Below are positions 56,427-63,743 of a stretch of DNA of 64,000 bases, piece after piece. The notes under the pieces were generated by a model, which did no database searches, was not told the origin of the DNA, and was given only the letters and a program-made list of their open reading frames with translations. The position numbers and the translations under genes are program-made. Each line of letters begins with the position of its first letter. Within the stretch, counting starts at the first letter, position 1. Source of the stretch: an uncultured Clostridia bacterium (lineage in GTDB: Bacteria; Bacillota; Clostridia; TANB77; CAG-465); NCBI GenBank assembly GCA_947626975.1, contig CANQUF010000003.1:26174-90173 (forward strand), written 5' to 3'.

Positions 56427-56482
56427 TTTAGCATGCCGAACTAGGGAAAACCTTAGTTTTCATATATCAACCTCTTATGATC

Positions 56483-56513
56483 GCCTCTATAGAAATATAG
56501 AGGCATCTTTTTA
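56483..56513 (+). terminator. Rho-independent terminator at the left edge of the island
   Basis: Stem GCCTCTATA/TATAGAGGC followed by ATCTTTTT. Confidence 0.7.
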
Positions 56514-56640
56514 TATATTTAAGTATAATAATAAAGAGAGAAGAGGCTAACTTAATAGTGATATTTTTTTAAAGCAATAATTGCGCAAAATATAAATTTT
56601 GTGCAAATAGGAGTAGTAATAAAACCAATATATTCATAAA

Positions 56641-56750
56641 TTACAGCTATTCCATGTTATTAGCCACTTTTAGCCAATTCTATCTATATATTTAAACACC
56701 AAGTTATATTATCTTTTTATAAAAATGTCTTAAAATCAATTTTAGAGCAC
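56641..56750 (+). repeat. Island repeat U1 (long form)
   Basis: Roughly 80% identical by eye to U5 (61034..61130). Contains TAGCCA boxes in 10-bp phase and the core TGTCTTAAAATCAATTTTAGAGC. Confidence 0.75.
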
Positions 56751-56792
56751 AGTATTTTTCATAATTTCTAGCCATAAAACTATATGCCTTTT

Positions 56793-56829
56793 TTATAAAA
56801 ATGCCTTAAAATCGATTCTCGTGCGTCAC
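56793..56829 (+). repeat. Island repeat U2 (core only, degenerate)
   Basis: TTATAAAAATGCCTTAAAATCGATTCTCGTGCGTCAC aligns with the U1 core. Confidence 0.65.
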
Positions 56830-56956
56830 TTTTTTAGGAATTTTTGAGTATTTTTAATAAATTTCTAAAATTCAACGTTTCTACTAAAAATTATATATTA
56901 AACACCAGATTTATAAATTCACATATCTAATCATATACATATAACTTGTTTGATTA

Positions 56957-56993
56957 AATATAAAAGTGTCTTAAAATCGATTTTAGCGTGTCA
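56957..56993 (+). repeat. Island repeat U3 (core only)
   Basis: AATATAAAAGTGTCTTAAAATCGATTTTAGCGTGTCA contains the perfect palindrome TAAAATCGATTTTA. Confidence 0.7.
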
Positions 56994-57352
56994 TAAATAT
57001 AAAATTATATTATGTATTCGTAATCTAAAATTTATAATATTTATACAAAAAAATTATAAGATAATAATTCAAAAAATTATTTACAAACAATTTTAACAAA
57101 TGTTCGTTTATTAAAATTTATGTACAAAATTTAACTTTACGCAAAATTTTAAATTTTTATTTGTTTAAATCTTAATTATTAAATTTTTTATTTTAAATTC
57201 AAATGTTTTTTTTATTTTATATTTTACTAGTATAAAATTTTTTATATTTATTTTTTCCAGTAAATTAACCTATTCTCCTATCCCCTATTTACTTTTCTGT
57301 ATAATTGTTTTTAATTGATCTTATTTTTTTCTGTACTTTGTCATTTATTTTA

Positions 57353-60724: not shown

Positions 60725-61033
60725 TTTTAAACCTCCATTATATATAAAATATCATAAATTTTATATATTTTCAATAAATATGTATAAAAAATTAAAAAAA
60801 TTATACATATTTTAAAAAATGTATAATTTTTAGTTATTTTAAAGATTAACTTTAACCTATATTTTGGTTTGTATTATAAAGTTTTTGTAAATATGTAAAA
60901 TTCTACTATATTTAGTTCTTTTACATTTTTTTAATCAACAAGTTTTTTATTTTTTATTTTACTGTACTTAATATACCTTACTAGCATAACTATAAAGCAT
61001 ATTATTTCACATATAAATCCAGTTATATTAGAA

Positions 61034-61130
61034 TTGTAGCTATTTTATGATATTAGCCAGTTTTAGCTAATTCATCTAAAGTTATATCACTTTAATATTA
61101 AAATATCTTAAAACTGGTTTTAAAGCGTTA
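61034..61130 (+). repeat. Island repeat U5 (long form)
   Basis: Aligns with U1 over its whole length. Contains TAGCTA/TAGCCA/TAGCTA boxes and the core TATCTTAAAACTGGTTTTAAAGC. Confidence 0.75.
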
Positions 61131-61428
61131 AATAAATTTTATTTCCTCTTTAAATATTATATTTTATTATATCTATTTTTAATTTTTAGATATATTTTTT
61201 ATATTACTAAAATATTATTACAAATCTATCGAATTTAAAAGTTATTTTCTTGAATTGTTTTTTCGTCTATTATATAAAAAACAATTATATTGCTATTTTT
61301 ATTAAAATTTAATAGAGCTAAAATTTGATTAAATACTAGCATACTCTCTGTTATAGAAGTTGTTATTATAGTCAATATATATTTATATTTAATTGAATAT
61401 ACGCCAATAATAGAACTTTAGTAATTTT

Positions 61429-62574
61429 TTATCCCTCTAAATCTGCATTTATAAAATTTCCATCTTTATCTATATTCACAACTACAAAATGATCATTAAA
61501 AATATCATTACTATCAAATATTACTTCAATTGATAGATCATTTTTTATTGTAATTGAAGGTTTACCTAATTTATTTAAAAAGTCTTCTTTTGTAATTTCT
61601 TTATCTTCCTCATTATAATCATTGGCATAATCAAGTAGTTTTTCTACAATGAAGTTATTTAGATTATTATTCCAATTTTCTAAATTAGTATATATATCTT
61701 TTAACTTATTTAATTGTAAATTAGCATCTGTTCTCCCCTCATCAACCTCAAGATATACATTACATTTACTACCTAAATAATTTATATCTCCTTCAAAACT
61801 ATTATAATCTCTATTTAATTTAAATTCTCCAAGTTTATCATTAATAACGACAGGTTTTAAATATTCTTCTTTTATTTCTTCTAAAGAATTATTTTTCATT
61901 TTTTGTAATACATCAACTAATAAATATGAATTATTATTTTCTTTGCTTATTTTTACTTTAACAAGATATATTCCTAACTTATCAAAATTAAATTTAATAT
62001 CTGAATTACTATTTTTTTCCATCCAAATTAATTTCCCAGGTTCCCTATTTAAAATTTTAGTTGTGTTATTTATAGAAGCAATAAAATTTACACTTGGTAC
62101 TCTATAGTTTGATTTTATCAAGTAACTAAATATTTTATTTTTTATTAATACAATCATCTCCATTTCATCATCACTAAATTTACTTTTAAAATTATATAAT
62201 GGATCTAATCTAGGTTCATTAACGTTTTCTTCTAGAACTTTTTCTAAATAATACTTTTTAAATTTATCATCTTTCTTAGAAATATATTCCCTAACTAAGA
62301 TACGATATACACCACCTTCAATAAATTTATACTTATTTAAATAAAAAAATTTTTTAGTATACAACCATTCTATCCAGTTAAATACGACATCTTGTCCTAT
62401 AATTTCCCCAGTTTGTAAATTAAGTGCTAAATCAAAACGTGCGCTACCTTTTATATATTCATTAACTTTACCAAGACTTGTAACTCCATTTTTCTCACAC
62501 CAAGTAATTCTTACAATTAATTCAATTTCTTCAGTTTTAAAATTTTCTAAATATTCTTGTAGTTCATTTTTCAT
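61429..62574 (-). CDS. Hypothetical protein (381 aa), island cargo nearest the recombinase
   Basis: AAGGAG RBS. No catalytic motif recognised. The C-terminal ~140 aa loosely recalls immunity-type DUF2262 proteins (memory-level similarity only). Confidence 0.6.
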   Translation of the reverse strand: MKNELQEYLENFKTEEIELIVRITWCEKNGVTSLGKVNEYIKGSARFDLALNLQTGEIIGQDVVFNWIEWLYTKKFFYLNKYKFIEGGVYRILVREYISKKDDKFKKYYLEKVLEENVNEPRLDPLYNFKSKFSDDEMEMIVLIKNKIFSYLIKSNYRVPSVNFIASINNTTKILNREPGKLIWMEKNSNSDIKFNFDKLGIYLVKVKISKENNNSYLLVDVLQKMKNNSLEEIKEEYLKPVVINDKLGEFKLNRDYNSFEGDINYLGSKCNVYLEVDEGRTDANLQLNKLKDIYTNLENWNNNLNNFIVEKLLDYANDYNEEDKEITKEDFLNKLGKPSITIKNDLSIEVIFDSNDIFNDHFVVVNIDKDGNFINADLEG

Positions 62575-62575
62575 G

Positions 62576-62600
62576 ATATCTTAAACTCCTTTTAAAGCAT
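62576..62600 (+). repeat. Island repeat U6 (core only), between first cargo gene and recombinase gene
   Basis: ATATCTTAAACTCCTTTTAAAGCAT aligns with the U5 core ATATCTTAAAACTGGTTTTAAAGCG. Its spacer carries the RBS of the 381-aa gene. Confidence 0.6.
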
Positions 62601-62795
62601 TCTATCATAAAAAGTAATTTGAGTCAATATTTCAAAAACTATATATATATGCAAAAATGTATTATATTATAAGTCTATCAAAACACTAAGTTGACAAAAA
62701 AAGTAATATATGCTAATATAAAATTACAAGTAAATTTAACAAAATTATACAAATTTATAAGATATATTTTACTTTATTTTTTTGAGGTGATTTTA

Positions 62796-63743
62796 ATGTA
62801 TGATGATATACCAAAATATATAGAAAATTTTTTAATGTATATGAGAAATATACAAAATAGATCTAAAACGACTATTAGAGAATATTATTATGACTTAAGA
62901 TTTGCCTTTAGGTTTTTAAAAGCACATAAAAATAATTTAAGTAAAGAAAATTTAAATGAAATTAATATATCAGACTTAGATATTAGTTTTTTAAAAAGTA
63001 TATCACTAAATGATTTATATAATTACTTAGATTTTTTATCAACAAATTATAATGATAAACCTACAACAAGATCCAGAAAAGTTTCAGCTCTTAAATCTTT
63101 TTTTAATTATATGTGTTTTAAAGAAAAAGCTTTAGATAAAAACCCTACTGTCGAACTTGAAATGCCAAAACTTGGTAAAAGAATACCTAAATATTTAACT
63201 CTAGATGAAAGTAAAACACTTTTAAATTCAATTGAAGGAAAATTCGAAAAAAGAGATTATGCAATAATAACATTATTTTTAAACTGTGGGCTTCGTTTAT
63301 CTGAACTTGTAAATATAAATATAAAAGATATAAAAAATAATACACTTTCTATTATTGGAAAAGGAAATAAAGAAAGAATACTTTACTTAAATAACGCATG
63401 TACTAAAGCTATAAATGAATATTTAGCTGTAAGGCCACATGATAATTTAAAAGATCGTGATGCTTTATTTATAAGTAACTTTGGTGGAAGAATTAGTAGA
63501 CGTATGGTAGAAATGATAGTAAAGAAATATATATCTTTAGCAGGACTTGATCCTAAAAAATATACTCCACATAAATTACGTCATACTGCTGCTACTTTGA
63601 TGTTAAAGCATGGTAAAGTTGACATACGTTCTTTACAACAAGTATTAGGCCATGAAAGTATTTCTACTACTGAAATTTATACTCATGTAGACAGTGAGCA
63701 AATTAAAAATGCTTTAGAAAATAATCCATTAAACAATATATAA
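62796..63743 (+). CDS. Tyrosine recombinase, XerC/XerD-like
   Basis: SAM-like N-domain. Catalytic residues lie in GLRLSEL (Arg), HKLRHTAAT (H-x-x-R) and LGHESISTTEIYTHV (His/Tyr). GAGGTG RBS precedes ATG 62796. Confidence 0.85.
   Translation: MYDDIPKYIENFLMYMRNIQNRSKTTIREYYYDLRFAFRFLKAHKNNLSKENLNEINISDLDISFLKSISLNDLYNYLDFLSTNYNDKPTTRSRKVSALKSFFNYMCFKEKALDKNPTVELEMPKLGKRIPKYLTLDESKTLLNSIEGKFEKRDYAIITLFLNCGLRLSELVNINIKDIKNNTLSIIGKGNKERILYLNNACTKAINEYLAVRPHDNLKDRDALFISNFGGRISRRMVEMIVKKYISLAGLDPKKYTPHKLRHTAATLMLKHGKVDIRSLQQVLGHESISTTEIYTHVDSEQIKNALENNPLNNI

Follow-up and report, generated by a model that had tools for sequence, protein, structure and literature searches.

The window analyzed here is a stretch of 64,000 nucleotides (contig CANQUF010000003.1, assembly GCA_947626975.1) from an uncultured gut Clostridia bacterium with ~24% GC, whose relatives with a ~79% identical Xer protein include Clostridium sp. 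CAG:465 (L009; L numbers denote the loci and contigs compared with the window). The plus strand of its last 8 kb carries an SLT gene, a YebC gene, a SNase-like gene (55746-56426), and the tyrosine recombinase gene xer, and the last two enclose the island that is the subject of this work. As stated in an initial annotation made from the sequence alone, all island genes between the SNase-like gene and xer are found on the minus strand, and they are interspersed with same-orientation repeats, named U (Table 1). That annotation had read the arrangement as an integron-like cassette array or, alternatively, as the serial accretion of elements at one attachment site beside a Xer-like recombinase. Its inventory of sites was incomplete, as it missed a site resembling dif (the dimer-resolution site of the chromosome), a hybrid dif junction, and the remnant of a cargo gene between the HIT and Fic genes.

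Table 1. Features of the island and its borders (window coordinates)
Feature	Position	Strand	Remarks
Terminator hairpin	56483-56504	+	3' of the SNase-like gene; left chromosomal border of the locus
Candidate dif	56580-56607	+	ATTGCGCAAAA-TATAAA-TTTTGTGCAAAT; near-identical inverted arms, 6-bp center; single copy in the window
Five ~58-nt repeats (U1-U5)	56691-56748, 56767-56824, 56932-56989, 58724-58781, 61069-61126	one orientation	
U1, Ua-type, with upstream extension	56625-56748	+	
U2, Ub-type	56767-56838	+	With flank like the xer leader (GCGTCACTTTTTTAGG)
U3, Uc-type	56932-56989	+	
Backbone distal end	57095-57146		SOS-box-like AACAAATGTTCG (57095-57106) and dif-arm-like palindrome (57118-57146)
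APH-family kinase pseudogene, cargo	57374-58400	-	Pfam PF01636 (57495-58400); frameshift near 57503
Two short unassigned open reading frames	58438-58705	-	No Pfam match
U4, Ua-type, with AT-rich tail	58720-58892	+	Shares a 144-nt repeat with U5
HIT-family gene, cargo	58907-59419	-	Pfam PF01230
Remnant of a cargo gene	59464-59622	-	In the HIT-Fic spacer; intact (163 aa) in L047
Fic gene with promoter region, cargo	59663-60834	-	Pfam Fic_N, Fic, SoFic-like_C (59663-60724)
Hybrid junction	60864-60891	+	GGTTTGTATTA / central region / decayed dif right arm; attR-like right end of an element
U5, Ua-type, with upstream and downstream extensions	61032-61219	+	
381-aa DUF7021+DUF2262 gene, cargo	61429-62574	-	Pfam
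"U6"	62575-62598	+	Overlaps the ribosome-binding site of the 381-aa gene; 4 of 25 edits from the U5 core
xer, tyrosine recombinase, 315 aa	62796-63743	+	Pfam PF00589, PF02899

A candidate dif site at the replication terminus

About 150 bp past the stop codon of the SNase-like gene lies the site that we propose, from its structure and surroundings, as the candidate dif of this organism. Its arms are kept across related loci whose left flanks are unrelated, while the center varies (TATAAA, TAATAA, TCAAAG, TGAAAC, or TAGATA). The sign of the GC skew switches at the candidate, both in the window and in five 20-kb loci related to it, and genes converge there, which identifies the locus as the replication terminus. 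In the relatives examined (L003-L011, L014, L016-18, L065, and others), xer invariably has dif on its upstream side, the two being in one orientation and separated by 300 to 950 bp in the loci named, against 6.2 kb in the window. An empty site is represented by L011, in which 550 bp separate the 3' end of the SNase gene from dif, 220 bp separate dif from a single U, and 23 bp separate this U from xer. The sites difH and difSL were defined by criteria like the features found here, including linkage to the recombinase gene (PMC2731167, PMC5357621).

Compared with its state in the window and L014, the unit formed by dif, U, and xer is inverted in L016-L018 (around 9635-10963) with respect to the flanks (polA/YebC, Impact/LysM), and it keeps its internal order despite the swapped flanks. 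To judge from this arrangement, dif-U-xer behaves as a single module. Searches for a canonical dif with the B. subtilis site and a XerD-arm pattern gave chance-level matches in the window, the site found having AAAA/TTTT inner arms, and the dif pattern had no match in the viral contigs. Left of dif in L003 (3924-9621), variable plus-strand genes without Pfam matches are split by a duplicated SNase remnant (6565-7053) that comprises the 5' and 3' ends of the gene; this layout suggests that the 3' end of the SNase gene is a further hotspot of insertion.

The neighboring recombinase

The description of the recombinase as Xer-like, with no IntI-type signature, is borne out by the comparisons made here. 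The protein is nearest to XerD and XerA, with the solved structures 1a0p (XerD) and 5hxy (XerA) matching at E ~1e-36 and 5jjv (XerH) at E 2e-17, and it fails the integron-integrase models (TIGR02249, 99 bits against a cutoff of 265; NF011946, 72 against 435). IntI4 (2a3v) aligns to residues 236-300 only, which is the C-terminal catalytic box. The best NCBIfam matches are all below their cutoffs (XerC, 239 against 335; XerD, 216 against 330; archaeal XerA, 216.5 against 220), and the XerS model NF003462 reaches 158 bits against 267. Homologs of ~320 aa number more than 8000, and the best 120 are 65-89% identical, some of them being named XerC by NCBI.

The gene order polA - SLT - YebC - SNase ... 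xer is kept in relatives with a 61-80% identical Xer, in which minus-strand housekeeping genes (ClpX, ClpP, and trigger factor) come after xer. Judged by homology and synteny, the recombinase is the conserved housekeeping-type Xer of the clade. The initial annotation had foreseen that a housekeeping Xer might have acquired the island as its neighbor by chance; the first part of this proposal stands, but the adjacency is not a matter of chance, since genetic linkage of dif and xer is a trait of this clade. No Xer paralog was found within the 64-kb window. In L039, L041, and L098, which carry the triplet of U repeats described below, two tandem Xer-like genes are located within ~1 kb of the block; they are 37% and 41-44% identical to the window Xer, and these pairs may represent a two-recombinase version of the system. 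Furthermore, chain 14 of PDB 9i5v, labeled "Ribosome-associated translation inhibitor RaiA" (401 aa), matches Xer residues 4-308 with E 7e-29, and its label looks misassigned.

The U repeats belong to a conserved non-coding backbone

The five same-orientation repeats U1-U5 are real and, within the 64-kb window, restricted to the island. An nhmmer profile made from the five 58-nt copies and run on the whole window recovered them at E values of 2e-14 to 2e-11, with nothing else below E 0.6. The five copies are found within 4.4 kb, with none in the remaining ~58 kb, which is not how repeats of the dispersed repetitive extragenic palindromic (REP) type are distributed. The units are longer than originally described, reaching ~190 nt in U5 (61032-61219). 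Only part of the claim for a sixth copy, U6, can be retained. When up to 5 edits are allowed, the 25-nt core of U5 has this site as its sole other match in the window, but the site is missed by both the 58-nt profile and the backbone alignment (z <= 2.7), so that any resemblance it bears to U is confined to the core.

A metagenome scan with the U core yielded at least 120 loci, and a backbone alignment was built from 15 distinct lineages plus the window. The alignment reveals a non-coding block of ~1 kb, in which dif is separated by ~120 nt from Ua, Ub and Uc come next, and a motif like the SOS box and a half-site like a dif arm close the series. Profile searches show that many U-core loci carry the U triplet with a constant 193/161-bp spacing. 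We estimate from this alignment that the block is ~85-90% identical across hosts with Xer proteins that are 37-56% identical; no conserved open reading frame was found in it. A dif arm (strict pattern) is located within 1.5 kb in 57 of the 96 metagenomic U-core matches with enough left flank, and several of the others have variant dif sites. Thus, U1-U3, which had been taken for gene-less cassette sites, are instead the orthologs of Ua, Ub, and Uc, a conserved triplet that stands beside dif in many lineages, and in the window the spacing between U1 and U2 is shortened. U4 and U5 are extra Ua-type copies. The former aligns locally only to the Ua part of canonical backbones (z 8-15) and is probably the backbone remnant of an element carrying HIT and Fic, and the latter would belong to the oldest, xer-proximal module. 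The distal end is kept in most backbones, the window copy of its palindrome being a weak dif-like match (8 edits), and the motif next to it resembles what we take to be the Firmicutes LexA (SOS) box.

U resembles the region upstream of xer. In the closest relatives (L003-L011), a single U is located just before the ribosome-binding site of xer, and U2 with its flank is the best match to that U, being 77-79% identical to the sequence directly upstream of xer in L003, L009, L010, and L011. In the dif-xer modules, hexamers of promoter type are present in U, and the xer leader begins within it. Its core is an imperfect palindrome with AAAA-N4-TTTT, loosely dif-like, of which the left half is almost invariant and the right half varies without obvious compensation; this asymmetry speaks for a promoter element or a site recognized by its sequence rather than for a simple hairpin. 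When single U copies are folded as RNA, most do no better than shuffled sequences, with the exception of the L003 xer leader, in which GCCUUAAAA pairs with the ribosome-binding site (z = -3.0). These comparisons suggest that the U repeats are backbone sequence akin to the xer promoter/leader and not crossover sites. A role of U as a dif or crossover site was considered and dropped, as U2 keeps both ancestral flanks and the junctions fall at the palindrome 120 nt left of Ua.

A possible origin of the backbone is the intergenic region between dif and xer. The backbone might serve integration as a cis-acting sequence, in the manner of cer and psi, which are precedents for Xer accessory DNA, or else it might stop the transcripts of cargo genes ahead of dif. 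An Rfam scan of the window at gathering thresholds returned only two tRNAs and no family for U or the backbone, and permissive scans of 56400-62800 and of the canonical backbone of L060 gave chance-level matches only. The AT-rich "V" segments right of U3, U4, and U5 were tried as a permuted dif-U spacer, and the matches were weak and of low complexity.

Several related contigs show other arrangements of U or the backbone. Between Ub and Uc of L101, a segment GCCTAAAAATCAGC is inverted to GCTGATTTTCAGGC within the inverted repeat AAATGC...GCATTT, which amounts to a hairpin-loop inversion. In L065, two direct U copies (GTCTTAAAATCGATTCTAGAGCG.CG.TTTTTG) bracket xer (773-1864), one directly upstream and one directly downstream, while in L104 (1853-1903) and L107 (161-207, reverse-complemented) a U in the opposite orientation beyond dif results in inverted copies flanking it. 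The search of viral contigs with the U core gave one match, an exact core at 2462-2484 of L013 (IMG/VR UViG_3300014026_000169), a 104-kb "viral" contig in which positions 1-6500, around the core, contain no open reading frame of at least 100 aa (standard code, TGA or TAG reassigned) and no tRNAs. The 23-nt core is also present in L121 (4850 nt), a circular contig (141-nt terminal overlap) in which a Rep-like initiator and a PD-(D/E)XK-like gene were both recognized by eye. Since the 58-nt profile misses L121, this contig is probably unrelated.

Hybrid junctions and insertion boundaries

A second kind of site combines a foreign left arm with the dif center and the dif right arm. The window copy of this hybrid site (GGTTTGTATTATAAAGTTTTTGTAAA) lies 140 bp upstream of the Fic start codon and is 2-3 edits from the consensus hybrid, while the next-best match in the window requires at least 7 edits. 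Hybrid sites (<=4 edits) were detected in 26 of the 131 U-bearing loci, and L086 has two of them, 2.4 kb apart. In 10 loci, the window among them, a hybrid site is located 2.3-6.1 kb right of an intact dif; the left flanks are ~33% identical on average, and the central region is identical in six. Thus, an intact dif is paired with a dif-like site that shares its center and one arm both in the window (60864-60891) and in nine other loci, as in the integrative mobile elements that exploit Xer (IMEXs).

The boundary is most precisely placed in L093, where one AAA_14/DUF4143 gene stands between two copies of the Ua-Ub-Uc (abc) block. The first copy comes after an intact dif, the second is preceded by GGTTTGTATTA-TCAAAG-TTTTGTGC, and the homology of the two copies begins exactly at the central hexamer. 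The attachment site of the incoming element (attP) was reconstructed as GGTTTGTATTA-TCAAAG-TTTTGTGCAA. An independent case of integration at dif is suggested by L039 (237-6255, reverse-complemented), in which ~6 kb of small same-strand genes, including one with a weak Zot-like P-loop ATPase match, are located between a dif-like site (TTGCACAAAATCAAAGTTTCGCTC) and an intact dif; this block looks like a filamentous prophage.

The same cargo is found in different hosts. The Fic gene, taken together with its promoter and palindrome, is 85% identical at the nucleotide level and 88-91% at the protein level to its counterparts in L027 and L068, in both of which a hybrid site comes next. In L068, the order is dif, backbone, Fic, hybrid site, chromosomal genes, and xer, and its Xer is only 53% identical to that of the window. 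By Pfam, the inserts of the window and related loci carry APH, HIT, Fic, the DUF protein, AAA_14, GNAT, RhuM, LUD, and peptidase M29; NUDIX-like and kinase-like cargo proteins were recognized from sequence motifs only. The other inserts, too, carry accessory genes, nearly all of them on the minus strand, and no element-encoded integrase was revealed when the cargo of the window and of eight related inserts was scanned with Pfam. Taken as a comparison of sequences, these data point indirectly to horizontal mobility between hosts.

Strains of the same species differ as well. The contig L001 is 97% identical to the window from xer down to U5, and left of U5 it contains different DNA, including a different minus-strand gene, the homology ending at the left edge of U5. 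Variation at the level of modules is thus seen between strains. Elsewhere, the breaks that can be resolved lie at dif and hybrid sites and not at U cores.

A model of serial integration at dif

From the sites, their conservation and positions, the structure of the junctions, and the cargo common to different hosts, we infer catalysis by Xer, an order of insertions, and a role for the backbone. We consider it probable that the island is an array of integrase-less, IMEX-like elements, each made of a backbone and minus-strand cargo, integrated at dif by the host Xer. An element would consist of a dif-like attP, the ~1-kb backbone, and one or a few accessory genes transcribed toward the backbone. 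Its attP would have a divergent left arm (GGTTTGTATTA), the central hexamer, and a good right arm to which the backbone adjoins. Recombination of attP with dif by the host Xer would rebuild an intact dif on the SNase side and leave, on the xer side, a crippled junction (divergent arm, center, and dif right arm) that stabilizes the insert. The next element would enter at the rebuilt dif, so that growth of the array takes place at its dif end, and modules become older, and decay, toward xer. The alternative offered by the initial annotation, serial accretion at one attachment site through the neighboring recombinase, is supported in this sense, with dif as the site.

According to this model, element 1 would comprise dif, the backbone with U1-U3, and the APH pseudogene. 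Element 2 would comprise the backbone remnant with U4, HIT, the gene remnant, Fic, and the hybrid junction at 60864-60891, and element 3 would comprise the backbone remnant with U5 and the 381-aa gene, with xer after it. Together they would fill the 6.2 kb between dif and xer, an interval that in empty-site relatives is reduced to SNase - dif - ~220 bp - one U - xer.

It is important to consider the observations that weigh against this model. Decayed junctions were sought left of U4 and beside xer, and nothing significant was found. The right arm of the window hybrid site is itself decayed (TTTTTGTAAAT). Since only the junction on the Fic side is preserved, the number of elements (one to three) is deduced and the three-way division is partly conjecture. 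Homology between an incoming and a resident backbone extends over as much as ~1 kb, and RecA-dependent integration could therefore contribute. Finally, a search of the fetched contigs for free, circular elements found none; the only circular contig is L121.

A broader proposal is, in our view, possible, although we do not lean toward it as a whole. Clostridia of the human gut would carry widespread, protein-less mini-IMEX cassettes, captured at dif by the host Xer and stacked beside xer. In each cassette, an attP that mimics dif would be combined with exchangeable cargo and with a backbone, the latter comprising a U triplet that stems from the xer leader, a motif like the SOS box, and half of a dif site. 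The backbone would have a role in cis, for instance by binding Xer as accessory DNA and thereby freeing integration from the control that normally governs dimer resolution.

Alternative explanations

Much of the layout could arise if circular or transformed DNA bearing a backbone entered by RecA-dependent, Campbell-type crossovers, the dif-like sites being incidental. Such accretion fits the long backbone copies, 82-94% identical, that flank inserts, the partial blocks that bracket some of them (b...abc in L127, abc...c in L059), and the lack of a preserved junction left of U4 in the window. However, 26 loci have the conserved, non-homologous left arm GGTTTGTATTA directly against the central hexamer, with homology starting exactly there, and a boundary fixed in this way would not arise by homologous recombination. 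L068, moreover, carries an element yet is without resident backbone beyond the hybrid site. We thus regard this explanation as unlikely. Lower still is the probability that we give to the absence of any mobility, in which the island would be an ordinary decaying terminus region and U a local duplicate of a terminator, a regulatory sequence, or a REP-like repeat. The core with its T-run does resemble a weak terminator or leader hairpin, pseudogenes and gene remnants are present in the island, and the 23-nt core matches unrelated contigs too. Nevertheless, the other 58 kb of the window are without U copies, the same cargo and backbone recur at 85-91% identity in hosts with ~50% identical Xer, and the pairs of dif and hybrid junctions point to insertion events, making this the least probable of the accounts considered here.

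The integron-like reading, in which the U copies would be attC/attI-like sites and the neighboring Xer-like recombinase would capture and excise modules, is rejected here as very improbable. It drew on same-orientation U copies that bound modules, and other loci supply further examples of same-type copies bracketing inserts (b...b in L052, U-xer-U in L065); L001 departs from the window at the edge of U5, and the palindromic core is loosely like dif. On the contrary, U1-U3 are orthologous to a fixed triplet with 193/161-bp spacing in many lineages and are not cassette ends, and the nearly invariant left half and freely varying right half of U are unlike paired recombinase arms. All bracketed inserts that can be resolved have a dif/hybrid pair, with the break in homology at the dif center and not at U, there is no U beside xer in the window, and the recombinase fails the IntI tests. 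The shared minus strand of the cargo is the co-orientation with replication expected on that side of the terminus and is thus no evidence for integron-like expression.

Relation to known systems and significance

IMEXs are a known kind of system, and the variant proposed here was not found described in our literature searches. Like the island, which starts directly right of 56580-56607, the IMEXs TLC-phi, the gonococcal genetic island (GGI), EludIMEX-1, and Legionella LME-1 are integrated at dif in the terminus, lack an integrase, and form tandem arrays. The attP sites of TLC and GGI have the central region and one arm in common with dif and one divergent arm (PMC5357621), and the LME-1 insert is stabilized by a modified downstream dif site (PMC9765430). 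Unlike these named IMEXs, the elements described here reside in a host of the Clostridia (Firmicutes), in which the arms of dif are nearly identical and the site is linked to one xer gene. They are tiny (2.3-6 kb), without phage, conjugation, or Xer-activation genes, and share a ~1-kb non-coding backbone with three related 58-nt repeats, their dependence on Xer being putative. The distinctive traits of the variant would thus be tiny protein-less elements, a non-coding backbone, a Clostridia host with a dif-xer module, and spread through gut metagenomes.

Single-recombinase systems offer a parallel for the dif-xer module. In XerS/difSL, XerH/difH, and XerL, dif adjoins the recombinase gene, has palindromic arms and a variable center, and is located at the terminus (PMC5357621, PMC2731167). 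The linkage of dif and xer, the ...AAAA-N6-TTTT... arms with a variable center, and the terminus position are similar here, but the recombinase is neither XerS nor XerH, as the scores show. The dif arms (TTGCRCAAAA) resemble the XerC arm of classical dif. With integrons, the island shares a recombinase gene at one end of the array, same-orientation accessory genes with cargo of the GNAT, HIT, and Fic type, and insertion at a single site; unlike in integrons, there is neither IntI nor attC, dif stands at the array end far from the recombinase gene, and the cargo has its own promoters. To our knowledge, integrons are not known in this phylum. Acinetobacter pdif modules are found mostly on plasmids, between inverted XerC/D-XerD/C site pairs. 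They are small and recombinase-less, with Xer-type sites at their bounds and accessory genes inside (PMC12907356, PMC7399989). The units described here are alike in these respects, but unlike pdif modules the inserts are chromosomal, at a true dif, with directly oriented junctions and a conserved backbone.

If the dif assignment is correct, both the dimer-resolution site and a dif-xer module are now identified for poorly known, uncultured, low-GC gut Clostridia; XerL and its dif in Legionella were uncovered by the same logic (PMC9765430). If the elements are what we propose, Firmicutes have Xer-exploiting elements in the form of very small, integrase-less cargo carriers with a common non-coding backbone. 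These would provide a route for moving Fic, HIT, NUDIX-like, and GNAT proteins, kinases, and defense-like ATPases between distantly related gut bacteria. Should the mini-IMEX proposal hold, the system would be a Xer-based functional analog of the integron. As a caution, cassette-like repeats beside a tyrosine recombinase gene at the terminus need to be checked for dif before an analogy with integrons is drawn.

Cargo genes and other features

The assignments of the APH, HIT, Fic, and 381-aa cargo genes made at the outset are backed by Pfam. The reported frameshift of the APH gene is confirmed by a tblastn alignment in two frames, in which residues 1-300 of the 353-aa L060 homolog match one frame and residues 301-343 another. 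The two short open reading frames next to it, which had been proposed as a GNAT remnant, match neither a Pfam family nor the GNAT cargo protein of a related locus. The remnant in the HIT-Fic spacer is 62% identical over 58 aa to the L047 gene (tblastn, E 2e-16), and its DNA matches L108 as well as L047. The 381-aa gene is split in L001 into pieces of 238 and 78 aa.

In exact-protein look-ups, the sole match of Fic and HIT was a 100% identical 2.4-kb contig, while the 381-aa protein and YebC had no match; in plasmid and phage collections, only distant Fic genes were matched. The hairpin 3' of the SNase-like gene is the sole terminator-like site in a scan of 56400-62800, and a consensus scan for promoters and terminators was uninformative at 24% GC (75 sites, compared with 62 expected). 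Two tRNA-Met genes, unrelated to the island, are located on the minus strand at 37583-37659 and 41193-41268. Upstream of Fic (60796-60831) lies a near-perfect 36-nt palindrome, AAATTATACATATTTTAAAAAATGTATAATTT, which is conserved in L027, and a related sequence is found upstream of the 381-aa gene (62626-62668); both may be operators.

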